Source of the DNA: a virus
Taxonomy: Duplodnaviria > Heunggongvirae > Uroviricota > Caudoviricetes
Length of the DNA stretch: 64,000 nucleotides
Direction: 5' to 3' (one strand)
IMG/VR virus record: IMGVR_UViG_3300005527_003200
Below the pieces are notes generated by a model. The model did not search any database, was not told the DNA's origin, and worked only from the letters and a program-made list of their open reading frames with translations. Positions 8,137 through 38,085 of the stretch are shown one piece after another. The position numbers and the translations under genes are program-made. Numbering within the stretch: position 1 is the first letter of the stretch; each line of letters starts with the position of its first letter.

Positions 8137-8146
8137 GTTGGGCTCC

Positions 8147-8347: not shown

Positions 8348-8374
8348 CTCAAGCTCCTTAGTGTCTATGTGTGT

Positions 8375-8600: not shown

Positions 8601-8628
8601 GGTGGCTCCTCTGTTGTCTATGTGTGTA

Positions 8629-8982: not shown

Positions 8983-8988
8983 GTGTGT

Positions 8989-9017
8989 ATTATAGCATTT
9001 TGGGCATTTTTGGTCAA
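8989..9017 (-). promoter_or_regulatory. Sigma-70 promoter: TTGACC, 17-bp spacer, TATAAT. It predicts a leaderless or near-leaderless mRNA for the GIY-YIG gene.
   Basis: The minus strand reads gGTTGACCaaaaatgcccaaaatgcTATAATacacacATGATG. Confidence 0.65.
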
Positions 9018-9045
9018 CCGAAATGCCTGTTGCAAAAATACAACA

Positions 9046-9085
9046 AAAGTACTACTTTTTTTAGCCCTAAAAGTAGTACTTTTTT
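9046..9085. promoter_or_regulatory. Perfect 15-17-bp palindrome (AAAAGTACTACTTTT / AAAAGTAGTACTTTT) between divergent transcription units; bidirectional terminator or operator
   Basis: An inverted repeat with an 8-nt loop is flanked by A/T runs on both strands. Confidence 0.5.
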
Positions 9086-9110
9086 CAGCAAAAATTGAAT
9101 ATTTGGTCAA
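9082..9110 (-). promoter_or_regulatory. Degenerate fourth copy of the promoter repeat: TTGACC -35 with a poor -10 (TGAAAA)
   Basis: It shares GGTTGACCAAA...TTTTGC with the copies at 8375, 8629 and 8989. Confidence 0.25.
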
Positions 9111-9136
9111 CCAAAGTGTGGGCTATAAGTAACAGC

Positions 9137-10210: not shown

Positions 10211-10211
10211 C

Positions 10212-14024: not shown

Positions 14025-14240
14025 CTAGGTGTTTTTGAAGCTTCCGCCTGCGAGTTCTACCGTAATCACTTCATTGGAATTTGTAGCAGTGTTTGACCGT
14101 AGTTCTTCCAAAGTTACCAATAGCTTGGTAATGTCTGCATGCAGATCCTTAGCGTCACGAAGTGTCATGATAAAATCACGTTGGTTGCGTGACTCATGCG
14201 CCTTGATAGAATCAACAAATCGGTGTATGTGTAAACTCAT
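14025..14240 (-). CDS. Hypothetical protein (71 aa)
   Basis: It shares an ATGA-type overlap with MazG. Confidence 0.45.
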   Translation of the reverse strand: MSLHIHRFVDSIKAHESRNQRDFIMTLRDAKDLHADITKLLVTLEELRSNTATNSNEVITVELAGGSFKNT

Positions 14241-14605
14241 TTTTTAAGATATGGGTTGAGATCAGGTGGCGTCCAGCCTACAGGTTTGAGTACCTTACCA
14301 TCTTCGCGCTTGCGAACCTTGCCGGTGTCTCGATCAATCTTGGCAAAGTTAGTTTTCATGACTTCTTTCCAAGCACCTTCGGCATCTGCGCCCATACTGT
14401 GTAATGCACCAATAGTAACAACCAAAATGTCAATAAGTGCATCAACAGTTTCGACTTGGTCGTGTGCTGTGATTGCATCAGCCAATTCGTTGGCTTCTTC
14501 TTCAATCAATGTAACATACAAGTTAAATTGATCTTTGTTAAACTCGTTGACACTTTGGTCGCAAGCCTTCATAAATTTTTCTTGATCTCTAAACGGATTG
14601 GTCAT
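14237..14605 (-). CDS. mazG: MazG-family nucleoside triphosphate pyrophosphohydrolase
   Basis: It carries an EEEANELADAI (EExxE) motif. The start was trimmed to MTNPFRD to remove the overlap with the methyltransferase. Confidence 0.7.
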   Translation of the reverse strand: MTNPFRDQEKFMKACDQSVNEFNKDQFNLYVTLIEEEANELADAITAHDQVETVDALIDILVVTIGALHSMGADAEGAWKEVMKTNFAKIDRDTGKVRKREDGKVLKPVGWTPPDLNPYLKK

Positions 14606-15228
14606 AAGTTCTCCCGAAGTTCCCAAAGTGCTACCCAGCCATTAGATTTTGGAAAATAACTGGTTTGTAATTTATGTGATATTTTTAAATCATATCCCAT
14701 ATTTGACAGTGATTGATTAATAATAAAGAAGGGAGTTTTAAAATTGACCCCACAATGCTTCCAAGATTTTCGAAGTTGTCTCGACCCGCTGATATTAATA
14801 TCTTCTGGTAGATAAGCTAACGGATGCTCGGCAGTTACACAATCAAGCATTATGTATTTTGGTGTATTATAATTTACAAATAGTTCCAACAGATGCAATG
14901 AACTATGATGATGATACAACACACCAAAACAAATTACAACATCAAATGGTTTAGCATCTCTCATAAGCCAAACATCATCAACCACAACTTTGTCTACTCC
15001 AGGAATATCTTCTAATGTAGATTGGTGAACTATATTCCCTTCAATGCATTCTAAGTAACATGGTGCATGTTTTGCAATTAATTTAGTGTGTTTTCCAACA
15101 TGCGGCCCTACTTCAAGTACTCGAGCATTAGCACATACCTTCAAATAGTTTTCATCTATAAAATTATAATATTCAGTCTCATTACCAGTAACAGTTTTTA
15201 CATCTTCTTTAAAGTCATAAGGATGCAT
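14602..15228 (-). CDS. Class I SAM-dependent methyltransferase
   Basis: Motif I reads VLEVGPHVGKHT, followed by an acidic post-I residue. Confidence 0.6.
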   Translation of the reverse strand: MHPYDFKEDVKTVTGNETEYYNFIDENYLKVCANARVLEVGPHVGKHTKLIAKHAPCYLECIEGNIVHQSTLEDIPGVDKVVVDDVWLMRDAKPFDVVICFGVLYHHHSSLHLLELFVNYNTPKYIMLDCVTAEHPLAYLPEDINISGSRQLRKSWKHCGVNFKTPFFIINQSLSNMGYDLKISHKLQTSYFPKSNGWVALWELRENL

Positions 15229-18442: not shown

Positions 18443-19288
18443 TTATTTGCCCCATCCATTACCCCAGAGGTCCACATGCAATCGTGGGCTGTACCAATAA
18501 CCTCGTTTGAGTGCTTCGTCGGCAACGTGAATTCTATTGCCATCATACACACTCACAACACCGCCAACAGGCATCACAAAAACTGGTCCGCTAAATCCAC
18601 GGGTTCGATAGTCGTCAACTACTAGATCAAGCTCTTTGAAATCATCAATGTGACCAACAACAAACTTCAAATAGGTAACACCGTGAGTTTCGTAATCCCA
18701 AATAATGTCAGGTTTGATAGCATCTTCATACTTTTCACCACTGACACTAAGTTTAGGACTTACTGAGAATGTGATCTCGCCAAACCATTCAGACAGATAC
18801 TGTTTGAATTCTCTTGTGAGTTCTTGAGTACCATTGGTTTCAAATGTAATGTGTCGCAGTCCACGTTCGTGCAACAGATTCAACAGTTCAGGATATGCAC
18901 GTTGCCAACCTAGCAATGGCTCGCCACCTGTGATCACAAGATGCACTGAATTGCCGTTTGGTTGTTGCCAGTGGCCATTGGGCAACAGCGCAGCCATTTT
19001 GTCAACTAACTCTTGTGCTGTGTATGTGGGACTTAGATGTTTAAAGTCAGGATGCCAACTTGCATACGAATCGCATCCTGTATTAACCAACGGGAGCTCT
19101 TCAAAAGTCTTGTAGAGATGAACGCTCTTTGCGACGTCATCTGCCTCAGTGCTCTTATCACCGGGTTGGCATCCAAATCCCGAACACGTAAAGTTGCAAC
19201 CGAAGGTTCGTAAGAAGATAGAAGGAACTCCAATATAGCGTCCTTCGCCCTGAGCAGAATAAAATAGTTCACTTACTTTTAATTTCAT
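18443..19288 (-). CDS. queE: 7-carboxy-7-deazaguanine synthase QueE (radical SAM)
   Basis: The N-terminal ...SAQGEGRYIGVPSIFLRTFGCNFTCS carries the QueE-type C..C...C cluster. Confidence 0.8.
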   Translation of the reverse strand: MKLKVSELFYSAQGEGRYIGVPSIFLRTFGCNFTCSGFGCQPGDKSTEADDVAKSVHLYKTFEELPLVNTGCDSYASWHPDFKHLSPTYTAQELVDKMAALLPNGHWQQPNGNSVHLVITGGEPLLGWQRAYPELLNLLHERGLRHITFETNGTQELTREFKQYLSEWFGEITFSVSPKLSVSGEKYEDAIKPDIIWDYETHGVTYLKFVVGHIDDFKELDLVVDDYRTRGFSGPVFVMPVGGVVSVYDGNRIHVADEALKRGYWYSPRLHVDLWGNGWGK

Positions 19289-20004: not shown

Positions 20005-21987
20005 TTAGGCTGCTAGTTTTGCCCTGGCGCCAGCATCTCCGCGTTTGGCAACGTCTACCTGCGTGTCAGCGTTCAAGCATTCAACTGTGGCTTTTCCAAA
20101 ATTTCTACGTCTAGCAAAATAAAATAGTTCTAAGAAACGTGGAAAGCTCATAGTTTTATCTTCTGGAAACTCCAGTTGATATTCTCTTGGCGCATGTACA
20201 AGTTTGTGATCAAAGCTGAGATATTCCCAGATGTTGTAGTCTAATTCTAAAACCTCAGGATAAGTGTTCATAGCATCGTAAGCCACATGGTATCTGCGTT
20301 GGAATCGCATGATGTTCTCCAACAACACAGGCGGTAAATCATAACGACTCATGAACTTTTCTAACATGTCAAAGATATTGTGATTTTGTTTTTCCACATG
20401 CATGTTCAACACAGTTCTGTGTATGAGGTTCCATCCGTGAATTTCAATGCCAATCTTGGGATGATTGATTCGGCCATTGGTCATCCAACTGCGATAGTAC
20501 TCGCGAACTTCTTCTTGTTCGCGGTGGATCCATTCATGACCTTGCACGTATTCAAACAGGTCTGCATAAAACTCGCTGTAGGGCACACCCTGATACTTGA
20601 ACACCAATCGACTCAACAGTGTGCTGATGCCATTGATGTGGAAGGTATTGATAAACCATGAAAAAATATGTGCTTCCATCATGACATCAAACGGCATGTC
20701 TTTGGTGCCAGTGATAATGTCAATGGCTTCTTCAATGTGTTCGTTGGAGTATGATCCAGAAAAATAGTCTGTTACACTTTGATTGGTAATCTTAAACAAC
20801 TTCTTCTGCAACAGGTTCATTTCGGCATTTTCCAACAACTGAGCCTGGAACACCGTGAGACCAGTATGATTGCCCATTTCAAACAAAGTCCAAAAGTTTT
20901 TCTTCCAAGACTCAAGACTTTCACCAGGTAGGCCCAAGATAAGTTCAGTGTAGGTTGGAATGTTACGTTGCTCACACAGCTCAAATACTTCGTTGAGCTT
21001 GTTCATTTCCATGTTTTTGCGACGAATGTTTTCCAATACATCCAAGTCAAGACTTTGCACACTCAGCGTTAGACCTTGATTGAAGCCTCGGGCATCCAGC
21101 AATTTTTTAACAATGTCCACAACTTCTTTCTTTTGATTCTTGGCCCAGGCCACAGAGAAAGTTCTCGGAGAACCATACTTTTCTTGACATTCAATAATCT
21201 TGTCTGCAATCAAACTGTCACGTTCGGCAAACATGCCAAAGTTAGCGTCAGTAATTGATATGAAATCAAAGTTGTGCTTAGCCATCCATTCCAACTCATG
21301 GTACACACGTTCTAAACCAAACTTCTTGACCTTGTTGTATGTCAAGCTACCCCAGTCACAAAACGTACAAGCAAATGGGCAACCACGAGAAGTTTCTAGT
21401 GTGCCTTGCCACATGATGTCAGGATTTGCAGCCATTAGGTCATCAAATACACCTGCCAGATACGGGCTAGGAATATCTTCAAGAGTTTCAATGCGCTTGG
21501 CATCACCTGTGCTTATAGCTTCGCCGTCTCGATTGATCAGCAAGCCAGGTATTGACTCCCAGTCTTTGCTGTCATATGCCAGCATGAGATTTCTAAATGT
21601 GATTTCACCTTCGTAGCAAATCACAATGTCCATGAATGGTTCTTTGCGAAACAGATCTTTGTCTGTGATTGCAGGTTCGGGACCGCCAAATATGGTCAAC
21701 ACGCCAGGATTGATCTCCTTGAGCCTGCGAGCCAATGCATAGTTGAAATTGTGATTCCACACATAAGTGCTAAAAGTCACAACATCATTTTCAGCCAGTC
21801 GTTGTGCAATTGGCTCTATGTTGTCCCGGCGCCACACCCATTCAGTCACTTGCCATGCATCACGTATGCTGGGTTCCGCAACTGCATAACTCCAAATCAC
21901 ACCTGCTGAGTATGGCAGGTAGTAGGCATTGAGTTCTTTAGGACCTTGTTGGAAGTTTGGTTGTACCCAGGCAATTTTTCTTTTCAT
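20005..21987 (-). CDS. B12-binding-domain radical SAM enzyme (class B radical SAM; methyltransferase-type)
   Basis: An N-terminal B12-binding-like domain is followed by RGCPFACTFCDW (C...C..C) and a long C-terminal extension. Confidence 0.7.
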   Translation of the reverse strand: MKRKIAWVQPNFQQGPKELNAYYLPYSAGVIWSYAVAEPSIRDAWQVTEWVWRRDNIEPIAQRLAENDVVTFSTYVWNHNFNYALARRLKEINPGVLTIFGGPEPAITDKDLFRKEPFMDIVICYEGEITFRNLMLAYDSKDWESIPGLLINRDGEAISTGDAKRIETLEDIPSPYLAGVFDDLMAANPDIMWQGTLETSRGCPFACTFCDWGSLTYNKVKKFGLERVYHELEWMAKHNFDFISITDANFGMFAERDSLIADKIIECQEKYGSPRTFSVAWAKNQKKEVVDIVKKLLDARGFNQGLTLSVQSLDLDVLENIRRKNMEMNKLNEVFELCEQRNIPTYTELILGLPGESLESWKKNFWTLFEMGNHTGLTVFQAQLLENAEMNLLQKKLFKITNQSVTDYFSGSYSNEHIEEAIDIITGTKDMPFDVMMEAHIFSWFINTFHINGISTLLSRLVFKYQGVPYSEFYADLFEYVQGHEWIHREQEEVREYYRSWMTNGRINHPKIGIEIHGWNLIHRTVLNMHVEKQNHNIFDMLEKFMSRYDLPPVLLENIMRFQRRYHVAYDAMNTYPEVLELDYNIWEYLSFDHKLVHAPREYQLEFPEDKTMSFPRFLELFYFARRRNFGKATVECLNADTQVDVAKRGDAGARAKLAA

Positions 21988-22876: not shown

Positions 22877-23497
22877 TTATGCTTGATTGTCTGCAGCCAG
22901 CTTTTTCTGCAAGTGATTCAACAAGAAACCATACGCAGGCAGAATAACCAACAGACTCACAATGATCTTACTGATTGAATTGTTGGTTGCAACAATGTGC
23001 CAGTTAGCAGCCATGAACTCATTTGCGCCACCAGCAAAGGCAGTAAAGAAGAACACATAGGTATCAAAGAATGTGCTCACAATTGAACTCAATGCAGGAG
23101 CAATCCACCAAGTGGCGTACTTTTCACGAATGTATTGGAACACGTACACATCAAGCAAGTTGCTCACAAAGTATGCAACACCCGAGCCAAGACCAATGCG
23201 GAAAGCAACTGAGTCAGGAGCACCGCCCAGTTTGACCACTGCCATTGACACAATGATAGCAGGGATGAATGCCAATGCAATCACCGCACGACCAGTTTGT
23301 TTGCCTAACATTCGCACAGTCAAGTCGGTCAACACAACCACTAGTGGGAATGTGAATGCGGCTGCTGCCAATGGTGCACCAAACACTGAGAATTTGAATT
23401 GCACAATGTAGTTGCTGATAGCAATGATAATGATATGTGCCAGCATGAGCTTGTAGGCCAATGCACGGTCAACGCCACTTAAGATTCGATCTAACAT
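22877..23497 (-). CDS. YhhQ/VUT-family queuosine-precursor (preQ0/preQ1) transporter
   Basis: It has six or more TM segments and a COG1738/DUF165-like pattern with a conserved FF/Y-rich core. Confidence 0.6.
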   Translation of the reverse strand: MLDRILSGVDRALAYKLMLAHIIIIAISNYIVQFKFSVFGAPLAAAAFTFPLVVVLTDLTVRMLGKQTGRAVIALAFIPAIIVSMAVVKLGGAPDSVAFRIGLGSGVAYFVSNLLDVYVFQYIREKYATWWIAPALSSIVSTFFDTYVFFFTAFAGGANEFMAANWHIVATNNSISKIIVSLLVILPAYGFLLNHLQKKLAADNQA

Positions 23498-23514: not shown

Positions 23515-24021
23515 TTAAACGAATAGATCTTCCATCCACTCGCGATGGCCTTCTCTAAAAGCCATATTGCTCTGTGTTTCGCGCACTTCCACACGATAGC
23601 ACCAGAGACGCTCTGCTTCACCCGGTCCCCACAGGTCCGGAATGTAAACACCGTTCACATACTTGTACAGCATGTCTGCCAAGCCTTCACACCCTAAGCG
23701 TGGCAGGATTGTGAGTTTGGCCATTTTTTTCTCTTGCAAGAGCTTGTATGTCGCCAGCTCTGGATCATCTGCAGACACCAGCAAGGTATGATCAAATTGA
23801 TCTTCTAATGTCTTTTTAAGTTCTTTGAGACCGCCATAGTCAGCGGCCCAGTTACGCACATCCAGGTTGTCTGTGCCAAAGTAGAACTTCATTGAGAATG
23901 AGTAACCGTGAATTAGATTGCAGTGGCTGTCGGCACGCCATTGACGGTATGCGCAGGGAAAAGCATCATGATACTCTTTGGTGCTGGTGTACTTGTATTG
24001 TACTGGTTGATTTGTTGCCAT
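23515..24021 (-). CDS. queD: 6-carboxytetrahydropterin synthase QueD (PTPS family)
   Basis: It carries the C..H.NLIHGY zinc/catalytic motif (CxxxHGH). At 168 aa it has the typical QueD/PTPS size. Confidence 0.75.
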   Translation of the reverse strand: MATNQPVQYKYTSTKEYHDAFPCAYRQWRADSHCNLIHGYSFSMKFYFGTDNLDVRNWAADYGGLKELKKTLEDQFDHTLLVSADDPELATYKLLQEKKMAKLTILPRLGCEGLADMLYKYVNGVYIPDLWGPGEAERLWCYRVEVRETQSNMAFREGHREWMEDLFV

Positions 24022-24785: not shown

Positions 24786-25190
24786 TTATGGTTTTTGGTA
24801 ACTACCTGTTTTGTAGTTAGCTTGTCCAATAATAACCCCACGTACTCCGCCCACTGGGTCAGCACAGTCACCTGCTCGGCGTGGAATCAAATGCACATGT
24901 GGATACATCACAGTTTGACCTGCTTCACGACCCATGTTGATGCCGATATTAAATGCATCACATTCGCCATTGACAACCATTCTGCGACCATGCAGCATGG
25001 CTGATTCAAAACAGTCCATGATTACCGCATCGTTATTGTACTGTGGCACAAACAACAAATGACCGGGTGTGACAGGATAACGATCACGAAACACAGCCAC
25101 GTGATAGTCTGACAGTTCTGTCACACGGTCGTCCCAGGGTGCAATATCTTGTTGATATGCAATTTCTAAATCAGTCATAATAGTTTTCAT
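24786..25190 (-). CDS. HIT-family (histidine triad) nucleotide hydrolase/transferase
   Basis: It carries the HVHLIP (HxHxHxx) motif. Confidence 0.7.
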   Translation of the reverse strand: MKTIMTDLEIAYQQDIAPWDDRVTELSDYHVAVFRDRYPVTPGHLLFVPQYNNDAVIMDCFESAMLHGRRMVVNGECDAFNIGINMGREAGQTVMYPHVHLIPRRAGDCADPVGGVRGVIIGQANYKTGSYQKP

Positions 25191-26251: not shown

Positions 26252-26662
26252 TCATACGCAAACTTCCTCTTTGAGATATCGTTTGAGTTCTTTGTCATTG
26301 GGTTCTACAGTATAGTTCTTCTTGAAAAAAATTTCATAACTATCACTGCCGTATTTGCCAATGCCGTACAAATCGGTAGCATCATCACCATTCCAAGTCA
26401 TGTAGTCTTGACTCATTTTTTTCAATCTGGTGTATCTTACATTAGCCATACCTAATGGTGCAATAATGCTTTTTACAAAATCTTCATCGGCTGCGATCAA
26501 TGCTTCCGGCGTTGGGAACCAGTATAAAAATTCTGGCAAGGTTGTTTTTACAGATTTGCGGCCTGTTTGATTCAACATGATCACTCCAACCATGTGTTCC
26601 CATGAGTTAGAGATTTGTTGTTGAACCATCAGATCATCTCGTAATGCATGAAAAAATATCAT
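26252..26662 (-). CDS. HhH-GPD superfamily (endonuclease-III-like) DNA-glycosylase-fold protein, short form without an FeS domain
   Basis: VIMLNQTGRKSV...LYGIGKYGSDSYEIF aligns by eye to the EndoIII VLLSAQATDVSV...LPGVGRKTANVV segment. Its start overlaps the FolE stop. Confidence 0.5.
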   Translation of the reverse strand: MIFFHALRDDLMVQQQISNSWEHMVGVIMLNQTGRKSVKTTLPEFLYWFPTPEALIAADEDFVKSIIAPLGMANVRYTRLKKMSQDYMTWNGDDATDLYGIGKYGSDSYEIFFKKNYTVEPNDKELKRYLKEEVCV

Positions 26663-27351
26663 CGTGGTGCAAAGTCCTGTTGTAGTTTGATGTTGTCAAA
26701 GAATTCTTTTTTTACACTTTGGTCTGATTTAAACGCACCGTGTAAAACTGTTGTTTGGGTGAGACTAGAGTGAGCCATGATACCGCGATTCTCACAACAA
26801 CCATGGGTAGCTTGTATATAAACTGCAACATCCTTGGACCCGGTCGCGAATTCAATTTCGCGAGCAATATCCATACATAGCTCTTCTTGGAGAGTGCCTC
26901 GACGGGCACACCATTGCGCAATCCTGGTATACTTGGATAGACCAATAAGTTTGGGGCCAGCAATGATTCCAATATAAGCCACACCCGTAACAGGCTGGTG
27001 ATGATGCGAACACATGCTCTTAAGCTCTGAACGCACCACAAGCATACCTTCGTATGCTCCGTCCGTATCGTTTGGGAAAGCCGTAGCATTAGGGCTCGTC
27101 TCATAGCGACCAGCCATAATTTCATTGAAGTACATTTTTGCAAGGCGTTGCGCCGTGCCTTGTGAGTTAGGATCATTTTCCCTGTCAATTAGTAGTGTAT
27201 CGAGAACTTGTTCAAATGCTTGAGTGGCCTCCATAATCAAATGTTCACGATCTGACTCAGCAACATAATCACTGATGTTGTCACCAGCCCAGAATCTCTT
27301 GCCGTCTGCCTTCATGCGTTCGCGAAGGACTTGTGATAGATTTTTTTCCAA
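26659..27351 (-). CDS. folE: GTP cyclohydrolase I (FolE)
   Basis: It carries SMCSHHH and IQATHGCCENRGI, matching the FolE Cys/His zinc site and the H.C...RG motif. Confidence 0.8.
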   Translation of the reverse strand: MEKNLSQVLRERMKADGKRFWAGDNISDYVAESDREHLIMEATQAFEQVLDTLLIDRENDPNSQGTAQRLAKMYFNEIMAGRYETSPNATAFPNDTDGAYEGMLVVRSELKSMCSHHHQPVTGVAYIGIIAGPKLIGLSKYTRIAQWCARRGTLQEELCMDIAREIEFATGSKDVAVYIQATHGCCENRGIMAHSSLTQTTVLHGAFKSDQSVKKEFFDNIKLQQDFAPR

Positions 27352-27418
27352 TTGTTATTCTCCGAGTTATAAGACGTGGATGTCTATGTGTTAATTGTAA
27401 ACTATTTAGATTGACTTG

Positions 27419-28129
27419 TCAATAGATTAATTGATTTGTGACCCATCTAATTAACCTATCTGCTATAACTTGATGGCCCAGTTGATTGGGATGGCCACCA
27501 CTACTGCTAAACAATTCATGTCCTCGTTCCATACTGGTAAATTTCACTCCCAGTATGTCAGCACAAGTTACCTTGCCATTCTCATACATGTATCTAGTGT
27601 CTACTTCAGACCAAAATTTTATCTTTTGCCAGCCAGCAACAAATAGTGCATTTACCCTGGCTTCTCTGCAAATTCCTTGCACAGTCAAGATAGCAGTGTT
27701 CACAGCATAATCGTGTGCGGCATCGCTAGAAAAATACTTGTAATACAATTCGTTTAGATTGTGTTCTGTGGGATTGGCATTGGGCACAGCCACTCCGTTG
27801 GGTTGCAAATGTACCAGCCGATCATGCCAGGTCATGTGACGTTGTTGAGAAGTCAAAAACACCAATACAGTGTACCTATTGTCTGGATTTTCTCTTTCAG
27901 TGCGGTACTTGTCTAAAAAGCCTTTGAGTTGCAACACTGTGTGAGGAATGCTGGATCCAGGTACTGCAACATTATCCACACTGGTCACATTCAAACGGTC
28001 ACCAATGATCTGGCCAAATGATTTTTCGCCTGGCTCAAGTTCTGCACCATATGCCCAACTGTCTCCTAAAATAGCAAGTCTATGAATCATTCTTATCAAA
28101 CTCTGTTTCCACGCGGCTGTACCAAGCAT
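27419..28129 (-). CDS. SGNH/GDSL-like hydrolase paralogue 3 (canonical GDSW block I)
   Basis: It has ILGDSWAYG at the N-terminus and GGHPNQLGH (DxxH-type) near the C-terminus. Confidence 0.6.
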   Translation of the reverse strand: MLGTAAWKQSLIRMIHRLAILGDSWAYGAELEPGEKSFGQIIGDRLNVTSVDNVAVPGSSIPHTVLQLKGFLDKYRTERENPDNRYTVLVFLTSQQRHMTWHDRLVHLQPNGVAVPNANPTEHNLNELYYKYFSSDAAHDYAVNTAILTVQGICREARVNALFVAGWQKIKFWSEVDTRYMYENGKVTCADILGVKFTSMERGHELFSSSGGHPNQLGHQVIADRLIRWVTNQLIY

Positions 28130-29081
28130 CTACGTCTCGTGCATATTCTCTCAACAGATTATAGTTGTTTTCAATGCGTGTGGACAACTGTTGTTTTAAC
28201 TCACAACATTGTCCCACAGTCAATTGATCTAGCCTGTGTATTTCTTTCAGCACAGCATGTAATCTCTGATCTTCATCTGTGATGTTGTCATAACTGTGTG
28301 TGACAATGTCATCAAACACATCAAACCCCAGTTTACGCACTTCAGCAACCAGACCAGGAACTGCAAACCAAATTGGAATTTGTCTCAAGCCAAATGCCTT
28401 GAATGTTTTTTCACTGATAAAATGACTGCGCCACACGCCAACATCAGACTGACTGCCAGACTCTGCAACAATATTGAACATGCAGGTTTTGAACATGCTG
28501 TTGGTTTGGTCATGTTCTAGCCCAGTTGATCGTTCCACAATCCCATCCAACAACAGCGGCAATTCTCTTGGTATAATTTCTCGGTATTCGTTGGTAATGT
28601 TATTGGCACCCATGCTACCAAAGCTGAGTCTGACACTAGAGATGTCCGTCAACCCAGCAGCAAGTCTAGCACGACTTATACTGGGCCTACGAATCAAACA
28701 CAAAAACTTTGTGTCAATGCCAGTAGCGGCACCAGACGCATCAAGACGATCAAACCAACCGGCAAAATTTGTTAGAAAAGTAGGTTGCGACAGTGCTTTG
28801 TACGAAAGGCCATCAACGTCAACCACAGCGTTGAATACCACCAGGATATCTTCAACTGGTAGTGTTTGCAAATACGTAATTAGATTGCCGATCACTTTGT
28901 CACACTGGCCTTCGGCTCTAAAATCTACTATGAGTTTTTTGCCGTGCAAGTCGGCTCGTGACATTCCGCTGGTTGCTAAATCTTGTTCTACTCTAGGACC
29001 AGGGTTATCAAGATACCATTGTGCCATGTGCAATGCACCATAATGCACAAGATTGCGTCTTGAAAAACTAAACCACTTCAT
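28080..29081 (-). CDS. Putative glycosyltransferase, GT10-like, paralogue C
   Basis: It has the C-terminal motif NIVAESGSQSD...SEKTFKAF...PIWFAVPG...LGFDVFDDIVTHSYD. Confidence 0.5.
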   Translation of the reverse strand: MKWFSFSRRNLVHYGALHMAQWYLDNPGPRVEQDLATSGMSRADLHGKKLIVDFRAEGQCDKVIGNLITYLQTLPVEDILVVFNAVVDVDGLSYKALSQPTFLTNFAGWFDRLDASGAATGIDTKFLCLIRRPSISRARLAAGLTDISSVRLSFGSMGANNITNEYREIIPRELPLLLDGIVERSTGLEHDQTNSMFKTCMFNIVAESGSQSDVGVWRSHFISEKTFKAFGLRQIPIWFAVPGLVAEVRKLGFDVFDDIVTHSYDNITDEDQRLHAVLKEIHRLDQLTVGQCCELKQQLSTRIENNYNLLREYARDVDAWYSRVETEFDKNDS

Positions 29082-29674
29082 TCAACAATCTTGATATTTC
29101 TTAGATCAGGATATGGCACATACACAGGTTTAGGATTGTGTTCCTTGACACCTTGTAGCAATGCCACACCTTGAATGGCATCTTCAATACTGGGCTTGTA
29201 GTGATAGCCCACATGAAATGTCTTTTGGTCCTGCCAAGGTGCCACAGTCAAGTCTCTGCCATCATAGCGTTGGCGCAATATGGTTTCATATGCTTTTTTA
29301 TCATCCAACAATATAGCACCACCATGCCCAATAGCCAATGGCTTTGTATGTCCAAAACTCAAACACTGCATGGTGCCTGGCCGATACATATCCTGTTCCA
29401 ATCTGCGAGCTGAGTCCCAAATTCTAGTGTAAGTGAATTCATACTCGCCTTCCCAATGCTGCCAGTCAATATCGTGATAGACATAGTGAATGCCTAACTT
29501 GTGCATGGTCATAGGAATGCTCAAATAAGTGTAAGGTGTAAACTTACAAGCTCGTACTCGATCATATCGCAAGCAAAGTTCAATGGCATGTGTACAGCAA
29601 TCAGTCATGATTGCATACGGTGCTCCTGTGAACTCTGCTAGTTCTTCTTCAAACTTTTTTATCTTGTCGAACAT
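29078..29674 (-). CDS. DegT/DnrJ/EryC1-like (sugar aminotransferase fold) protein, short form
   Basis: The N-terminal FEEELAEFTGAPYAIMTDCCTHAIELCL resembles the DegT N-terminus, and SFGHTKPLAIGHGGAIL resembles the Lys-PLP region. The internal segment is shortened. Confidence 0.45.
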   Translation of the reverse strand: MFDKIKKFEEELAEFTGAPYAIMTDCCTHAIELCLRYDRVRACKFTPYTYLSIPMTMHKLGIHYVYHDIDWQHWEGEYEFTYTRIWDSARRLEQDMYRPGTMQCLSFGHTKPLAIGHGGAILLDDKKAYETILRQRYDGRDLTVAPWQDQKTFHVGYHYKPSIEDAIQGVALLQGVKEHNPKPVYVPYPDLRNIKIVE

Positions 29675-30611
29675 ACCAGTTCCATGCGTGTTGAATCATG
29701 TCATCTAGCTCATAATGACGCCATGCTCCTGCTATCAAATTAAACTTTTCTGAACTGGCAGTAAGTACAGGAGGGTCACCGGCTCTACGCTTGCCAACAA
29801 CAACATTCAATGGTTGTTGTGTTTCATCAAGTGCGGCTTCAATAATGCCGTGATTGCTTGTGCCCATGCTGGAGCCAAGATTGTAAACGCCCGCAGGGAT
29901 TTTGTGATATAACGCCAGAACGTGGGCCCGGGCAATATCATCCACATGCACGTAATCACGCACACATGTACCATCCTCAGTGGGGAAATCGTTTCCGTTT
30001 AACACAAAATCTTTTTGATCCCTTATGCTTTCAAGCACTCTAGCAATAATATGTGTGGCACCAGGCTCTTGACCATGCCTGCCTTTGGGGTCTGCACCAC
30101 ATGCATTGAAATAGCGAAAACTAACATAGTCAAGACCGTATGCCCGGTGATAGCTTTCCAGCATCATGTCAATCATCAGTTTAGATTCGCCATAAGGACT
30201 AACAGGTTCGTTGGGATCCACTTCATGTATGGGATTCATGACGGGCTCACCGTATGTGGCTGCTGAACTTGAAAACACCAATCTACAACGAGGCATGCTT
30301 TGTTTAACAATATCCAACAACTTCAATGTTTTGGCCACATTGTTGTTGTAGTATTCTGAAGGGTTCTGTACTGAAGGCCCCACAAGGCTGGTGCCAGCAC
30401 AATGAATGATAGCATTGGGTTGCTTTTGTATGATCCAACTCAGTGCTACATCACTTGCAAAGTCCTGATACAAGAATCCATCGGGCACACCTCTAAGATG
30501 TTCAGGAGGCTGTCTGCGATCAATGCCGTATACTTCATGCCCGGCATCTTTCAATGCCAGCATGGTCTGACCACCAATGTACCCGGCTGATCCAGTTACA
30601 ATTACAATCAT
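29649..30611 (-). CDS. galE: UDP-sugar 4-epimerase (GalE-like NAD-dependent epimerase/dehydratase)
   Basis: It has a TGSAGYIGG Rossmann motif and a YGESK catalytic dyad region. Confidence 0.75.
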   Translation of the reverse strand: MIVIVTGSAGYIGGQTMLALKDAGHEVYGIDRRQPPEHLRGVPDGFLYQDFASDVALSWIIQKQPNAIIHCAGTSLVGPSVQNPSEYYNNNVAKTLKLLDIVKQSMPRCRLVFSSSAATYGEPVMNPIHEVDPNEPVSPYGESKLMIDMMLESYHRAYGLDYVSFRYFNACGADPKGRHGQEPGATHIIARVLESIRDQKDFVLNGNDFPTEDGTCVRDYVHVDDIARAHVLALYHKIPAGVYNLGSSMGTSNHGIIEAALDETQQPLNVVVGKRRAGDPPVLTASSEKFNLIAGAWRHYELDDMIQHAWNWYVRQDKKV

Positions 30612-31822
30612 TTTTCAATCTTTACAACTTGATATTTTTCGTGAGAAGCGTGGTCACGATAGCGGTTGCCCGCTCTATTCCATTGCTCACCGCTACCACT
30701 AATAATATCAATAACGCGATCCACAGTGGCATTGTTCCAATCTGAAATAAGTCCCATGTTGTGGTGCGGCTCGCGAAGTAGGTTTTGCATTTTGTGATAA
30801 GCATCATCTATGCTCCAGGGAATATACAGTCTATTGGGATCGTTCGCGAAGGTTTCAGGAAAACTGCGATACGCTGGATATAGCACATTGCATCCAACAG
30901 TATCGGCCTCTGATACGGTGTTTGAAACCCAATCTTGTAAAGCACAATTAAACAACACACGAGTATTGTTGAGATGACTATAGTATTCATTCTTGCTTAT
31001 ATTGTCGTAGATCTTGAGCTTGCCTTCTGCCTCCATACGGAGGGCACGTTCAATATAGTCTGGATTGTTGGATCGGAGAGGTCCGCCACTGTATATTGCA
31101 AACTCACACGGTTCGGAGGTAAGCTCACCATACATCTCAATAAGGTCCATGAAGAATCCAGGTTGTTTTTCCTGATCGAAACGGGCTGCAAAACCCACTC
31201 GTCTCGGTCTTTCAGCAAACGGCGTGATATTCTCTGTACCGCCAATTCTTTCCAGAACCTCTGATTTTCCAAATGCCAGACCGGAAATGTTGTAGATTGG
31301 AGCAGTCCATCCAGCGATGCGCATGTGCGCGACCATTTCTTCATTGGTAGCCAATACTGCACCCCCCGAGAAAGCCACCATCTCATTGACCATTTGTTCA
31401 TACAAGTTCATCCACTTTGCCATACCCCACACATGCACAAAGTCATCAGGATCAATGGCCTGTGCCAAACAACGAACATAAATCTTTGGACATTGTTCTT
31501 GTGGAATCTGATTCATGATGTAACCAAGGCTTTCAAAGCCCGGCTGGAACATGTCTTCAAAGTAGATCACATCGTCACCGGTAACATCGCCGTTCTTCAT
31601 GAGCTGAACCAAGTTCATCATTTGGCTCATGGCAAAGAAACTGCGTCCGTGTGCGTCTAACACTTGACCTACTGAGATAGCTTGTGTGTTGTCAATTGTA
31701 GTGCCAGGCACATACACAACATCAAGACCTCTGCGGTCAAACACACGTCGATTCCACTCTGTGAGTTGTAGTGTGTAGCGGGCTTCATAACTTTCCAAGC
31801 CCATGTAAAATAGTTTTCTCAT
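30608..31822 (-). CDS. GT-B-fold glycosyltransferase (GT4/GT1-like)
   Basis: The C-terminal domain carries an E..K-type motif (FAARFDQEKQPG). Confidence 0.55.
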   Translation of the reverse strand: MRKLFYMGLESYEARYTLQLTEWNRRVFDRRGLDVVYVPGTTIDNTQAISVGQVLDAHGRSFFAMSQMMNLVQLMKNGDVTGDDVIYFEDMFQPGFESLGYIMNQIPQEQCPKIYVRCLAQAIDPDDFVHVWGMAKWMNLYEQMVNEMVAFSGGAVLATNEEMVAHMRIAGWTAPIYNISGLAFGKSEVLERIGGTENITPFAERPRRVGFAARFDQEKQPGFFMDLIEMYGELTSEPCEFAIYSGGPLRSNNPDYIERALRMEAEGKLKIYDNISKNEYYSHLNNTRVLFNCALQDWVSNTVSEADTVGCNVLYPAYRSFPETFANDPNRLYIPWSIDDAYHKMQNLLREPHHNMGLISDWNNATVDRVIDIISGSGEQWNRAGNRYRDHASHEKYQVVKIEK

Positions 31823-32526
31823 TGATGTTCCTGTAAAAATTTTATCACTGTGGGTTTTAAATGTTCTGCAAACAGTACATTGCCTTTGAAGTTTGGATGA
31901 ACATTGTTGAACAAATCTTGTGTTTCAAGTTGTTTCCAAAAAAAGAATGTGTCCCACACACTGTCTACCAAACTTGGTTCTGGATCGATGTTAGGGGTTT
32001 CGTGCATGAACCTGTGTATAACTTCAGCACCCCAACAATGATGCATATCAAATTCTGTGCCATCGTTTAGTATAACACAAACCGACCCATTATTAATAGT
32101 CATTCCGGCTTTGTCTGCTAGAAATTTTTGCCAGGAAAGATGTCCTATAGTAATGTTTGGATAATTGCAATTAACAATGTCACTGTGTGCTCCAATTAAC
32201 AACACAGGTTTATTTAAACTGTTGATTTTGTTCAGACAAAATTGATTGCATTCTTCCCAAATATCTTTCCAGTCTGAACGCTGAATAAATTCTTTGAAAG
32301 TTAACTTAGTTGCATCTTGTAAACACAAAATAGGTTCATTATAGATCCAAATTACAGGTACATTAGGCGATCGTACCAATCTAATATAACTTCCCAACAC
32401 ACTAGTTCCAGATTGAGCATGGTCATAGAACTCAAACCCCCATTCCTTGGCAAGATTAGTTGTTGGTACATCCAGCGGCCAACTAGATGCCGCCCAACTT
32501 GGTCCAGTGTATGTAAATTTTTTCAT
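31819..32526 (-). CDS. SGNH-like paralogue 4 (degenerate block I)
   Basis: It shares a C-terminal pattern with the other paralogues. The ORF was trimmed to MKKFTY, downstream of the stop at 32534. Confidence 0.4.
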   Translation of the reverse strand: MKKFTYTGPSWAASSWPLDVPTTNLAKEWGFEFYDHAQSGTSVLGSYIRLVRSPNVPVIWIYNEPILCLQDATKLTFKEFIQRSDWKDIWEECNQFCLNKINSLNKPVLLIGAHSDIVNCNYPNITIGHLSWQKFLADKAGMTINNGSVCVILNDGTEFDMHHCWGAEVIHRFMHETPNIDPEPSLVDSVWDTFFFWKQLETQDLFNNVHPNFKGNVLFAEHLKPTVIKFLQEHQ

Positions 32527-32533
32527 CAGCCAC

Positions 32534-32761
32534 TTAGTTACGAAATGCTCCGGCAAAGCGACGAGTGTCTTCGTCCCACATGTTCTTGGCATTCTTGCCT
32601 TGTGAAAACTTGTTGAACTGCTGCCAGGCATAACTCTTAAAGTTATACAAATCGGCTTCGTTGTAACGATAACCGTAGTCTTGGCAGAACTCCTGGAAGT
32701 GCTCAAGATGCTCAAAGAGCTCGGCCACACGTGGGTTAGATTTAATAGCGATTTTTGCCAT
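32534..32761 (-). CDS. Hypothetical protein (75 aa)
   Basis: It is operon-consistent. Confidence 0.45.
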   Translation of the reverse strand: MAKIAIKSNPRVAELFEHLEHFQEFCQDYGYRYNEADLYNFKSYAWQQFNKFSQGKNAKNMWDEDTRRFAGAFRN

Positions 32762-32772
32762 TTTGTTTCCTA

Positions 32773-33216
32773 TTAGATAGCAATGTTAATACTAGGGCGG
32801 TGAGTTTCATACTTAATAAGAGCTCCGTTTTCACCATCTTCGGAGACCTCAATCCAGACTGAGCGTTCTGGATACCGTGCGGCAATTTGCAAATACAAAT
32901 CGTCTGACATCATTTCACATGACTTGTAGTCGAGTTGGACGGTTCCTGACTCGTAGAGTTTTTGTAGCCATCGTTTGAACTGGATGAATTCAATGTCTCG
33001 ATCATTGTGTACAACATCAATCCACACCCGGAAGTGGAAGATATGACGGTGAGGAGTACCAAGGAAACTAACATCATACTCATCGCCCGTCTTAAGGGCT
33101 GGATCTGTTGCGGCTGCGGGGTAGAAGTGGATGCCTTCTTTTTGGAAGGTAACCCAGATTCTTCTTTGTGCGGCATATTTGATTCTTTCAATTTGTTCAC
33201 GTTCATCTTGTATCAT
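32773..33216 (-). CDS. Hypothetical protein (147 aa)
   Basis: It is operon-consistent. Confidence 0.5.
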   Translation of the reverse strand: MIQDEREQIERIKYAAQRRIWVTFQKEGIHFYPAAATDPALKTGDEYDVSFLGTPHRHIFHFRVWIDVVHNDRDIEFIQFKRWLQKLYESGTVQLDYKSCEMMSDDLYLQIAARYPERSVWIEVSEDGENGALIKYETHRPSINIAI

Positions 33217-33746
33217 TTGATTACTTCATCCTTTGTGTATTGGTCCCAAGAGGTAAATGTTTTTCTATCCAGCAAGTCATGCAGGCTGTGACACCATACT
33301 CCTGGGTTGGTTGCTTTGAAATCTTTGTCGTCTAGCTTGATAGTGGCATTGTAGCCTAGCAGTTTAATATAAGGCAGTTTCACTGAAATCATAGGAACAA
33401 ATTGTGCTTGTTCGCACAAGCTACCTTCGCACAATCCTTCCACAGCACTTGAATCAAGATCCAAGGTACACCAGTATCCTCGATCCAGCCACGGTTGAAT
33501 CATCTGTTCCCAGGCAGTCCAGACTCCAGCATCGTTCATAGTGGGGTTTGGAAAACTTTGATTGGCGCCAAAGTAGATGTGTGTGATTGGATTTTTACTC
33601 TTGTGGTCTGACTCACCCAGTTGCCACATGATTTGATCTGCATCTTGCAGTCCGACCACAAACAATGTACGGTGACCGGCTACAGGACTGGCCTCAACTT
33701 CTGTACCTACAAAGAAATTGGTATCTTCGTGTCCGGGTCTATTCAT
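33213..33746 (-). CDS. Hypothetical protein (177 aa)
   Basis: It has ATGA overlaps at both ends. Confidence 0.5.
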   Translation of the reverse strand: MNRPGHEDTNFFVGTEVEASPVAGHRTLFVVGLQDADQIMWQLGESDHKSKNPITHIYFGANQSFPNPTMNDAGVWTAWEQMIQPWLDRGYWCTLDLDSSAVEGLCEGSLCEQAQFVPMISVKLPYIKLLGYNATIKLDDKDFKATNPGVWCHSLHDLLDRKTFTSWDQYTKDEVIK

Positions 33747-34720
33747 AATGTAATCTCAAATAAGTTAGATAAATGTTTGTTGTTTGCTTTTTTGTCTGTC
33801 TTAGTTTTTTTCATGCCAGGGTGTACCTTTTTATTTTTAAATTCAGTAGCATCAAAAATTGATCTTGGCACAAAGAAACGATCCATAACTCCAGATACTT
33901 TGGTATAACTTTTACCAAGGTCATTGCCGTTAAAATCACACATCACATAATCACCTAACCCCATCATAAGATTGATAATATCATTGCAAGTGTACCCAAA
34001 TCGTTTACAATGTGTATCTCGCAGTTCGACCTGAACCACGGGTTGATACTTAGCAATGGTTTGTGTTGCACCTTCTAATGCAAACAGTTCAGAACCTTCA
34101 ATATCAATCTTAATAAGATCAACATTTTCAAACCCAAAACTGTCAAGTGTGCGTTGCTCTGCAGTCTGTGTGGGATTGTTGGTAGTTTTGCCATCAAGTA
34201 ACACAGCATCACCGCGACTGCACTCGTTGGTTTTTTGTTCCATGGTAATAATTCCAGCGACTTTACCTAATGCATATTCAAAAAACTCAATCTCTCCTAT
34301 CAAGTCAAGACTGGCAAATGTGCCATTGGGGAACTTGAACCAGCCATCTGGACGATCCGGCTGATGTCTTACTTGTTGCAGTTTGCTATCCCAATAACGA
34401 CCTTGAAGTTTTGCATTTTTTGCAATGTCTACATTGAGTTTCATTAGTTCCATGCTAGACTGCATGGGCTCAAAGGTTTTTACATGTTGGCACCAGGTGG
34501 CATATTCAATTGCGTTCATGCCAATGTTGCCACCAATGTCAATTACAGTTCTTGCATTAGGTAGCAAGCGACGATTCATTACCAAATTGCGAGCCTGGTA
34601 TGGACCGTTTTCTCTTGCCATACGCTGTTCATAAAGTTTGTCATTGTCCCAGATCCAATATTGCCTGCCTATGCGGTTTGTTACTAGTTTTTTGTTGTTG
34701 ATATCAAATAGTTGTGCCAT
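33743..34720 (-). CDS. FkbM-family methyltransferase
   Basis: It carries VIDIGGNIGMNAIEYA and DLIKIDIEGSELFALEGA. Confidence 0.7.
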   Translation of the reverse strand: MAQLFDINNKKLVTNRIGRQYWIWDNDKLYEQRMARENGPYQARNLVMNRRLLPNARTVIDIGGNIGMNAIEYATWCQHVKTFEPMQSSMELMKLNVDIAKNAKLQGRYWDSKLQQVRHQPDRPDGWFKFPNGTFASLDLIGEIEFFEYALGKVAGIITMEQKTNECSRGDAVLLDGKTTNNPTQTAEQRTLDSFGFENVDLIKIDIEGSELFALEGATQTIAKYQPVVQVELRDTHCKRFGYTCNDIINLMMGLGDYVMCDFNGNDLGKSYTKVSGVMDRFFVPRSIFDATEFKNKKVHPGMKKTKTDKKANNKHLSNLFEITL

Positions 34721-34791
34721 GTTGTTGCCTTATAAAGAAATCCTGCATACATATTTAACAGTATACAGGATCACGAGAGAGAAAGCAAGAG

Positions 34792-35715: not shown

Positions 35716-35739
35716 CTCCTAAGTTGTTACAATGCACAC

Positions 35740-35768
35740 ACTATAACACAAGAACAATTTTGAGTCAA
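35740..35768 (-). promoter_or_regulatory. Sigma-70-like promoter: TTGACT, 17-bp spacer, TATAGT
   Basis: The minus strand reads tTTGACTcaaaattgttcttgtgtTATAGTgtgtgc. Confidence 0.55.
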
Positions 35769-35790
35769 TCAAATTGTTAAAATAAAAGTA

Positions 35791-38084: not shown

Positions 38085-38085
38085 A

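Follow-up and report, generated by a model that had tools for sequence, protein, structure and literature searches.

The 64,000-nucleotide stretch of DNA deposited as IMG/VR record IMGVR_UViG_3300005527_003200, a virus of the Caudoviricetes (hereafter the window, meaning this stretch at its full length), encodes at 26252..26662 on its minus strand a 136-residue protein which, judged by its sequence and its predicted structure, is a complete, stand-alone homologue of the glycosylase domain of MBD4 and not a fragment of endonuclease III (Nth). The gene was delimited by an open reading frame (ORF) call, and its assignment as a stand-alone MBD4-type DNA glycosylase of the HhH-GPD class is based on Pfam, a phmmer search of PDB sequences, an AlphaFold2 (AF2) model and Foldseek. 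We consider it probable that the protein is a catalytically competent, monofunctional MBD4-type glycosylase that repairs deaminated cytosine in phage DNA, and that its position next to folE, the gene for GTP cyclohydrolase I, reflects the packing of genes in an accessory island. A first-pass annotation, made from the letters of the DNA, had described a truncated endonuclease-III-like protein lacking the iron-sulfur (FeS) domain and translationally coupled to FolE, and had offered as its function either an accessory role for the DNA-guanine transglycosylase DpdA or a decoy that protects modified DNA from host glycosylases. The fold, family, residue conservation, purifying selection, distribution and gene neighbourhoods of the protein are established by the analyses described here.

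The HhH-GPD family of Pfam (PF00730) matches residues 25-129 of the window protein at E 3.5e-9, its 37.4 bits exceeding the gathering threshold of 26.2, and a phmmer search against all PDB sequences aligns residues 13-129 with the glycosylase domain of mouse and human MBD4 at E values of 2e-17 to 2e-15, as compared with about 0.01 for MutY (0.009 at best) and about 0.2 for Nth. The scores against the NCBIfam models are 19.1 bits for nth (TIGR01083, cut-off 211.7) and 22.2 bits for mutY (TIGR01084, cut-off 286.5). An AF2 prediction from the single sequence was unusable, with a predicted local distance difference test score (pLDDT) of 51.6, and the run was repeated with a 108-sequence alignment drawn from three homologue searches, which gave an all-helical, two-lobe fold of eight helices with a pLDDT of 94.2 and a predicted template modelling score (pTM) of 0.89. 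When this model was compared with the PDB using Foldseek, the top 16 matches were all MBD4 structures (E 2e-7), with template modelling scores of 0.78-0.84 for the query (TMq) and 0.74-0.83 for the target (TMt) on domains of 136-145 residues. The next matches, viz., MutY, endonuclease III and the thermophilic T:G glycosylase MIG, follow at E values of about 2e-3 and have TMt scores of 0.3-0.46, which are low because these proteins bear an additional FeS module. Thus, the HhH-GPD fold proposed earlier is confirmed by a Pfam score above threshold, by the AF2 model and by significant Foldseek matches to the PDB, every one of which is an HhH-GPD glycosylase.

The absence of an FeS domain is likewise confirmed, as the 136 residues include a single Cys (C135) and no Cys4 motif, which makes an FeS cluster impossible, and the C-terminus lies 13 residues past the catalytic Asp. 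The description of the protein as truncated does not hold, since it spans a whole MBD4-type domain and this domain is naturally devoid of the FeS loop. A truncated endonuclease III can be ruled out with MBD4 being the best match by both sequence and structure and with the Nth and MutY scores lying about 10-fold under their cut-offs. Membership in the Nth family was rejected on the missing FeS loop (one Cys), the Tyr found where the catalytic Lys is expected and the NCBIfam score under the cut-off, and membership in the MutY family on a length too short for the FeS loop together with the C-terminal 8-oxoG-recognition domain, in addition to a score under the cut-off. Nor is it an orthologue of the whole MBD4 protein, for there is no N-terminal methyl-CpG-binding domain or linker, and its 136 residues make up the glycosylase domain only. 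No family in the PHROG search matched the window protein, and PADLOC returned no meaningful match.

Alignment with MBD4 shows that the residues of the chemistry and of pyrimidine reading are kept in the window protein, whereas it has lost two residues by which the animal enzyme typically contacts DNA. The catalytic Asp of MBD4 (D534 in mouse, D560 in human), substitution of which in D534N leaves the enzyme inactive or nearly so (PMC3458566, PMC3479182), is retained as D123 (codon GAC, 26294..26296, minus strand; vepnDkeLkrY aligned with vhpeDhkLnkY). The helix-hairpin-helix, LYGIGKYGSDS, is formed by residues 98-108 (26339..26371, minus strand) and includes Y104 (26351-26353), the equivalent of human MBD4 Y540. 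This Tyr of MBD4 (Y514 in mouse, Y540 in human) replaces the Schiff-base Lys of bifunctional glycosylases and hydrogen bonds to O2 of the flipped pyrimidine, and the Y514F enzyme is nearly dead (PMC3458566). V13-Q14 (26621..26626, minus strand; motif LMVQQQ) align with V448-Q449 of human MBD4, which read O4, N3 and O2 of the flipped T or U, Q449A being dead (PMC3479182, PMC3458566). L30-N31 correspond to L466-N467 and M72 to L508, while Q32 (26567..26569, minus strand) occupies the position of the arginine finger R468 (LNQTGRK here against LNRTSGK in MBD4). In MBD4, the Arg finger (R442/R468) plugs the gap left by the flipped base and the Leu wedge (L482/L508) intercalates (PMC3458566, PMC3479182). 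Likewise, E125 is found at the position of K562, with K124 one residue earlier; the MBD4 Lys (K536/K562) stacks on the flipped base and its replacement in K536A slows the enzyme 5-10-fold (PMC3458566).

Column counts were made over the 120 best homologues in each of three phage clades (freshwater, marine and Xp12), the Q14 position being scorable only in the freshwater and marine clades. The D123 and Y104 residues are present in 120/120 homologues of every clade (360/360), and the Q14 position is Gln in 120/120 freshwater and 119/119 marine homologues. The catalytic Asp is found in 131 of 133 family representatives, and a family alignment of 33 sequences shows no variation at G100, G102, Y104, D123 or L126. 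The finger position, on the other hand, is Gln in 120/120 freshwater homologues, Leu or Gln in the marine clade, Leu in the Xp12 clade, and Gln, Lys, Arg or Leu over 136 family representatives, and the Arg finger is therefore a feature of the animal enzyme rather than of the family as a whole. The K562 position is Glu in the freshwater and marine clades and Lys in the Xp12 clade. It is known that MutY and endonuclease III use a Gln plug, and the change from Arg to Gln at the finger is for this reason not obviously disabling; we take the LNQT loop of the window protein to resemble the LxQQT loop of MutY and Nth that carries this plug.

The nucleotide sequences tell of the same constraint. Synonymous sites are saturated in 82 of the 84 pairwise comparisons of the window gene with its freshwater relatives, at amino acid identities that are still 78-86%, and dN/dS is about 0.07 in the two usable pairs; with most pairs unusable owing to this saturation, we take the ratio only as a sign of long-term purifying selection. 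Identities in the same loci are lower for other proteins, being about 65% for PolB, about 60% for HIT and about 50% for the 5'-3' exonuclease. On these comparisons the gene appears to encode a strongly constrained enzyme, and not a decaying remnant or an inert decoy. The idea of a decoy, viz., an inert DNA-binding protein that shields modified phage DNA from host glycosylases or other anti-phage defence, can point to the existence of host glycosylases that attack 7-deazaguanine-modified phage DNA (bioRxiv 10.1101/2025.10.29.685425) and to the small size and predicted DNA binding of the protein. However, in the clades scored every aligned sequence keeps the catalytic Asp, the Tyr and the base-reading Gln (D123, Y104 and Q14), residues that an inert shield could do without; the protein is under strong purifying selection, and homologues are present in phages without deazaguanine genes. 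Moreover, with a genome well over 100 kb in size (related contigs measure 150-280 kb), stoichiometric shielding would seem implausible for a lesion-specific fold. We thus give the decoy the slightest of chances, and this proposal of the first-pass annotation is not borne out.

The G:U or G:T substrate, the monofunctional mode and the repair role that we propose are inferred from MBD4, which excises T and 5-hydroxymethyluracil (5hmU) opposite G and for which G:U is a good substrate (PMC3458566). By this analogy, the helix-hairpin-helix would bind and kink duplex DNA, and a uracil-type pyrimidine mispaired with G (U, T or a 5-substituted uracil such as 5hmU) would be flipped out. The flipped base would be read by V13 (through its backbone), Q14 and Y104, and the N-glycosidic bond would be cut with the help of D123. 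The resulting abasic site would then be handed to an apurinic/apyrimidinic (AP) endonuclease of the phage or the host, with a polymerase and a ligase finishing the repair. The biological role is most likely the repair of deaminated cytosine, or of deaminated modified cytosine, in phage DNA.

The family is large. A search with the window protein found 4065 homologues at E<=1e-3 in a set of 5.8 billion proteins, and searches centred on the proteins of cyanophage S-TIM54 and phage Xp12 found 3581 (many of them from Tara Oceans) and 254, respectively. A search of representatives at 50% identity yielded 1433 clusters, which include stand-alone forms of 125-170 residues as well as long proteins, which carry the domain at their C-terminus as eukaryotic MBD4 does. 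Among 50,697 deposited phage records, tblastn matched only 16, from S-TIM54, the Xp12 group of Xanthomonas and Stenotrophomonas phages, Janthinobacterium phage Donnerlittchen and an Aeropyrum virus; S-TIM54 is the sole cultured phage with a close homologue (48% identity). No known dpdA or deazaguanine phage is among these matches, and the dpdA cluster of phage 9g has no HhH-GPD gene. Conversely, the complete genomes of Xp12 and S-TIM54 have no homologue of FolE, QueD, QueE, YhhQ, DpdA or Gat-QueC (phmmer, E<=1e-3). In the literature, which was searched incompletely, we found no characterization of a phage MBD4-like glycosylase and nothing that links the 'ENDO3c' gene of Xp12 and of its relative AXL1 to G:T repair or MBD4. 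When the 12 kb surrounding the window gene were compared by megablast with the same 50,697 phage records, no match was obtained, and the nearest isolates by tblastn with PolB are jumbo T4-like phages that are at most about 51% identical.

A single-protein scan of the 185,579 species genomes of GTDB gave a single close match, on a contig of a metagenome-assembled genome labelled 'Methanobacteriota'. This contig (L162; PAOW01000007.1, 'MAG: Methanobacteriota archaeon isolate SAT205') is 18.7 kb long with 35% GC and bears the full phage synteny of PolB, o240, o512, o177, o147b, o404, glycosylase, HIT, FolE, QueE-like protein and 5'-3' exonuclease (o240 to o404 being our names for ORFs of the window lineage), and it is almost certainly a viral contig mis-binned into an archaeal genome. 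A structural search of BFVD retrieved no phage entry; its sole good viral match is U5KBB0, an HhH-GPD protein of the baculovirus Clostera anastomosis granulovirus A (E 3.5e-7, 32% identity), which suggests that an insect virus captured an MBD4-like domain independently.

In all 11 well-flanked loci of the Xp12 clade, the glycosylase gene is followed immediately by a gene for a PRA-PH nucleoside triphosphate (NTP) pyrophosphatase, and in 10 of them a thymidylate-synthase-like gene and a dCMP deaminase gene come next in order; in Xp12-type phages (L002, positions 7875-10953, which is Xp12 itself, L091-L099, L164 and L165) the MBD4-like gene heads a pyrophosphatase/thymidylate-synthase-like/dCMP deaminase/DHFR cluster. 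Phage AXL1 has the same gene order, from gp65 to gp61 (PMC9206674). The DNA of Xp12 has 5-methylcytosine in place of all cytosine (PMC9206674, PMC7653180), and AXL1 probably carries 5-methylcytosine DNA as well (PMC9206674). An MBD4-type gene makes sense in this clade because 5-methylcytosine deaminates to thymine, which is resistant to uracil-DNA glycosylase, and the G:T mispair so formed is the characteristic substrate of MBD4. The AXL1 study described gp65 as an 'ENDO3c' domain protein without a recognisable active site and did not recognise the kinship with MBD4 (PMC9206674); in our alignment of the clade the catalytic Asp, the Tyr and the Lys are conserved as in MBD4. Among phages, it is to deoxynucleotide-pool and pyrimidine metabolism (PRA-PH, thymidylate-synthase-like protein and dCMP deaminase), and not to folE, that the family has its most deeply conserved link.

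One could go further and suppose that the phage of the window itself has a genome containing 5-methyl- or 5-hydroxymethyl-cytosine, from which the glycosylase removes the T or 5hmU that arises by deamination and is refractory to the uracil-DNA glycosylase of the host. This would be a special case of the explanation that we prefer, to which we assign a minor yet appreciable chance. Besides the gene clusters of the Xp12 clade, it draws on the action of MBD4 on T and 5hmU opposite G (PMC3458566) and on the annotation of S-TIM54, which lists ThyA-like and ThyX genes, a deaminase, a DNA methylase and a 'DNA alpha-GT'. It also draws on the PRA-PH (MazG-like) gene, which many freshwater relatives carry in contact with the glycosylase gene, either overlapping it or directly beside it (loci L032, L039-L041, L044, L060, L067, L077 and L079), so that the pairing of glycosylase and pyrophosphatase is kept across clades whose proteins are only about 28% identical. 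The window has its own copy of this NTP pyrophosphohydrolase gene at 14237..14626 (minus strand; phmmer match to the Xp12 gene that follows the glycosylase at E 2e-11, and a weak NCBIfam match), 11.6 kb from the glycosylase gene. However, MazG-like genes are common in aquatic phages regardless of DNA modification, and the window clade has Glu in place of the Lys (K562) that contacts the 5-substituent in MBD4 and is shared by the Xp12 clade. Further, no thymidylate-synthase-like gene, DNA cytosine methyltransferase gene or other sign of modified cytosine was seen in the 64 kb of the window or, at about 140 freshwater and marine loci, in the 10 kb around the glycosylase gene.

We next consider the relation to folE. 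This gene lies at 26659..27351 (minus strand; Pfam GTP_cyclohydroI, PF01227, E 2.8e-39; phmmer match to phage 9g FolE, E 1e-18) and is the upstream neighbour of the glycosylase gene, the two being probably carried on one transcript. As the first-pass annotation had stated, the glycosylase start overlaps the folE stop: the ATG (26662-26660) and the TGA share an ATGA at 26659..26662, which on the minus strand reads ...CGATGATA..., with the codons TTT GCA CCA CGA TGA TAT. A promoter-like TTGACA-17-TACAAT sequence is found directly upstream of folE (27394..27422, minus strand), as a consensus match only, at 11 of 12 positions, and such sites are not enriched in the region (7 observed against 4.9 expected). 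The proposed coupling to folE thus stands for the window as far as the ATGA is concerned, but the overlap is limited to the closest relatives. L011 has the ATGA as well, L023 and L026 have TAATG, and 12 nt separate the two genes in L052, whereas in L043 and L073 the folE stop shares its ATGA with the start of a different small ORF inserted before the glycosylase gene. As another small ORF uses the same folE ATGA in these two loci, the start-stop overlap reflects tight packing after folE and is not a property of the gene pair.

To compare neighbourhoods, about 160 loci were annotated with the window proteins, the deazaguanine proteins of phage 9g and the pyrimidine-metabolism proteins of Xp12. 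The lineage of the window, which has freshwater and marine branches, shows a conserved block, PolB - o240 - o512 - o177 - o147b - o404, followed by a variable island that extends up to the 5'-3' exonuclease gene. This island holds the glycosylase gene, folE, a queE-like gene and a HIT gene, often a phosphoribosyltransferase gene and sometimes queD and a YhhQ-like gene, in shuffled orders such as FolE-QueE-GLY-exo, GLY-FolE-QueE, GLY-HIT-FolE-QueE, PRT-GLY (overlapping) and FolE-(0 to 3 small ORFs)-GLY, where GLY, PRT and exo denote the glycosylase, phosphoribosyltransferase and exonuclease genes. Of 88 freshwater loci, only 4 have FolE directly adjoining the glycosylase gene, and no marine locus does. 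Both flanks measure 5 kb or more in 37 freshwater loci, and 16 of these (43%) have no FolE within the 5-10 kb of flank, though their glycosylase is about 80% identical; in these the glycosylase gene stands beside Redoxin/ClpP/ligase genes, or beside genes for 2OG-Fe oxygenases and a carbamoyltransferase. That so many freshwater loci lack FolE, and that Xp12 and S-TIM54 lack deazaguanine genes, indicates that the glycosylase is independent of folE. Its location right behind folE in the window would then be a matter of dense packing in the variable accessory island of an uncultured, T4-related lineage of aquatic phages, and not the sign of an obligatory partnership with deazaguanine synthesis. 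The practical message would be that adjacency to folE gives no ground for inferring a deazaguanine function.

Within the lineage, the glycosylase gene nevertheless shares its variable island, as a rule, with folE and a queE-like gene, and the window has further genes of this kind: a QueE-like radical-SAM gene at 18443..19288 (PHROG 2076, 'QueE-like radical SAM domain', E 5e-55; phmmer match to 9g QueE, E 3e-11; N-terminal motif read), a QueD/PTPS-like gene at 23515..24021 (Pfam PTPS, E 5e-16) and a Vut_1/YhhQ-like transporter gene at 22877..23497 (Pfam Vut_1, E 2e-21), all on the minus strand. The search for deazaguanine genes covered about 60 ORFs of at least 100 residues with Pfam, 10 unannotated ORFs with PHROG, and the phage 9g proteins with phmmer. 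No QueC, QueF, Gat-QueC or DpdA/TGT was found in the 64-kb window, where it should be borne in mind that the genome is probably well over 100 kb and that divergent DpdA subfamilies could escape such searches; phmmer with 9g DpdA found no match in the window or in any fetched locus. The partial pathway encoded here would end at 7-carboxy-7-deazaguanine. Phages with preQ0-pathway genes but without DpdA have been reported, and either a boost to tRNA queuosine or a DpdA-independent insertion into DNA has been proposed for them (PMC6884629); the window fits this class.

Could the glycosylase be a component of a deazaguanine module, flipping or excising bases in aid of 7-deazaguanine insertion (as an accessory of DpdA or independently of it), or repairing mispairs opposite 7-deazaguanine? 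This appears improbable to us. It shares the island with folE and the queE-like gene in several gene orders and overlaps the phosphoribosyltransferase gene in the abundant marine relatives; the window has FolE, QueD, QueE-like and YhhQ-like genes with no QueC or DpdA found, in which situation a DpdA-independent route has been suggested (PMC6884629); and a possible ribosyl intermediate linked to the Asp of MBD4 (PMC3458566) could in principle be resolved by a base. On the other side, the family is absent from the known dpdA phages of the 50,697 records and present in complete genomes that have no deazaguanine genes, and 43% of the well-flanked freshwater loci have no folE nearby. The invariant base-binding residues would read a uracil-type pyrimidine and not a purine, the island is a general accessory hot-spot, and the pathway genes could serve the tRNA queuosine of the host instead of DNA modification (PMC6884629). 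The accessory role for DpdA that had been suggested is therefore not upheld: no DpdA/TGT was detected in the window, and the distribution of orthologues, by which that suggestion was to be judged, speaks against it, with none in dpdA phages and with the gene present in the Xp12 group and S-TIM54 without the pathway. A more daring version, in which an MBD4-like enzyme was recruited to a DpdA-independent 7-deazaguanine modification of DNA encoded by the folE/queD/queE-like/phosphoribosyltransferase/HIT/YhhQ-like island, acting by way of an abasic or ribosyl-enzyme intermediate or proof-reading opposite the modified guanine, seems to us quite improbable; were it true, the enzyme would represent a new HhH-GPD-based base-exchange or modification-maintenance enzyme of DNA. 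Any direct role of the glycosylase in deazaguanine biology is, in sum, improbable at best.

Other genes of the island may be mentioned here. The HIT-family gene (24786..25190, minus strand; Pfam HIT, E 7.5e-10, and synteny) is a recurrent neighbour of the glycosylase gene in the lineage. A phosphoribosyltransferase gene (Pfam Pribosyltran) stands beside the glycosylase gene in folE/queE islands at 10852-11448 in L007-L010, 9475-10008 in L167 and 2100-2633 in L168, and the window itself seemingly has none. Taken together, these two genes hint that a free (deaza)purine base is turned into a nucleotide.

The preferred reading of a repair glycosylase for deaminated cytosine has to be weighed against three observations that tell against it. 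First, the MBD4 DNA-contact residues R468 and K562 are replaced by Gln and Glu in the window protein (with a Lys one residue before the latter), so that its substrate range and kinetics may differ from those of MBD4. Second, no modified-cytosine genes turned up in the searches of the window and of the 10 kb around the gene in its relatives, as described above. Third, the glycosylase gene lies within about 3 kb of folE, the queE-like gene, the phosphoribosyltransferase gene or the HIT gene in many loci of the lineage despite the shuffling; such persistent clustering could reflect a functional link, which the explanation that we favour treats as incidental. Accessory genes in general gather in this island, a hot-spot flanked by conserved replication genes, and clustering within it is therefore weak evidence.

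Finally, the protein could counter an attack of the cytosine-deaminase type by the host, removing the uracils that such a defence puts into phage DNA, or serve as a weapon that nicks host DNA at mispairs and so promotes its breakdown. G:U is a good substrate of MBD4 (PMC3458566), and the gene is an accessory one of patchy distribution, as is often the case for counter-defence genes. However, PADLOC gave no match, a linked nuclease is not found, the protein is very highly conserved across lineages and habitats, unlike fast-evolving counter-defence genes, and host DNA offers few G:T or G:U sites; we judge this role highly improbable.

Comparison with known systems places the window protein closest to the MBD4 glycosylase domain, with which it shares the fold and domain boundaries (template modelling score of about 0.8 whether normalised to query or to target), 31-36% of the residues when aligned by structure, the lack of an FeS cluster, the hairpin GIGKYG(S/N)DSY, the catalytic Asp, a Tyr standing in for the lyase Lys, the Val-Gln reader and the Leu-Asn of the intercalating loop. 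It differs in being phage-encoded, in its 136 residues without a methyl-CpG-binding domain or linker, and in having Gln for R468, Met for the Leu508 wedge and D-K-E for D-H-K from the catalytic Asp onwards. The Xp12 protein (QNN97216) and AXL1 gp65 belong to the same family (tblastn E about 1e-8, 28% identity) and are likewise phage-encoded and stand-alone, with the invariant Asp, Tyr and helix-hairpin-helix. However, they form a separate clade with Leu at the finger and the MBD4-like Lys562 kept, and their gene is always joined to the NTP-pyrophosphatase/thymidylate-synthase-like/dCMP deaminase module of 5-methylcytosine phages and never to folE. Nth, MutY and MIG (PDB identifier 1KEA) share the HhH-GPD core and the catalytic Asp, and MIG also the predicted G:T/G:U specificity, but they possess a C-terminal Cys4 [4Fe-4S] loop and 210-350 residues, and Nth has a Schiff-base Lys. 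DpdA/TGT enzymes (for example, gp03 of phage 9g) have in common with the glycosylase base flipping, an Asp as nucleophile or stabiliser and a possible adjacency to folE, but differ in their unrelated TIM-barrel fold, their zinc site and the guanine exchange that they catalyse.

A likeness by function only is provided by Vsr of enterobacteria, a small enzyme for the G:T mismatches that arise by deamination of 5-methylcytosine, the gene of which overlaps that of Dcm, the enzyme that makes 5-methylcytosine. This arrangement parallels that of the Xp12 clade. Vsr has an unrelated fold, however, and is an endonuclease and not a glycosylase, and no cytosine-methylating gene was seen beside the window gene.

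MBD4-type glycosylases are known as guards of methylated CpG against C-to-T mutation in animals (and plants). Their stand-alone form appears as one of the more conserved accessory genes in abundant freshwater and marine myoviruses, with thousands of variants, and in the Xp12-type phages, the DNA of which is fully 5-methylcytosine, the glycosylase gene heads the operon that makes 5-methyl-dCTP. The family is abundant and strongly conserved in phages, is predicted to act in repair and is associated, through the Xp12 clade, with 5-methylcytosine genomes. If the predicted activity is true, phages would have independently paired cytosine methylation with G:T repair, like eukaryotes with MBD4 and enterobacteria with Vsr-Dcm, and the gene could be used as a marker for modified-cytosine genomes in viromes. 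Under the same condition, a compact, FeS-free T/U:G glycosylase of about 130 residues may serve as a reagent.

Several other genes of the window deserve mention. The o404 gene (30608-31822, minus strand; 350-404 residues in the family) stands directly before folE throughout the related contigs, and in the window four sugar-cluster genes (27419-30611) separate the two. It has no Pfam, PHROG or NCBIfam match. As a candidate DpdA it showed no similarity to 9g DpdA (hhalign probability 0.4%), and as a candidate T4-type DNA glucosyltransferase it gave no significant BLASTP match to the 'alpha-GT' of S-TIM54; in the PDB its profile reaches only the GT-B glycosyltransferase WlaC, and that weakly (E 0.05), and o404 could be a glycosyltransferase acting on DNA or on polysaccharide. 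From about 27400 to 38200 (minus strand), sugar and polysaccharide genes are interleaved with the conserved genes of the replication module, including those for a GDSL-like protein, a DegT-type aminotransferase, an NAD-dependent epimerase, an FkbM methyltransferase, a sulfotransferase-like protein and several unknowns. This block looks like a lineage-specific insertion and is absent in most relatives, for example L007-L010.

A 513-residue asparagine-synthase-like amidotransferase is encoded on the plus strand at 10212-11753 (GATase_7 and Asn_synthase domains; PHROG 16728, of unknown function) and shows no similarity to phage 9g Gat-QueC by phmmer; that its chemistry, from carboxylate to amide, would suit the conversion of 7-carboxy- to 7-amido-7-deazaguanine is pure speculation. 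The window further encodes a 660-residue B12-binding radical-SAM protein (20005-21987, minus strand), a 367-residue radical-SAM protein (47130-48233, plus strand; PHROG 21308) and a 1389-residue protein with an Amidoligase_2 domain (54983-59152, minus strand). Host-like auxiliary genes on the minus strand at 434-1324, 3313-4077, 4534-5328, 46250-46750 and 62491-63957 comprise those for a Gram-negative porin, a fatty-acid desaturase, a Band 7/SPFH protein, a ferritin-like protein and a fragment of a ClpB-like AAA+ ATPase, and suggest a Gram-negative host and a large accessory repertoire.

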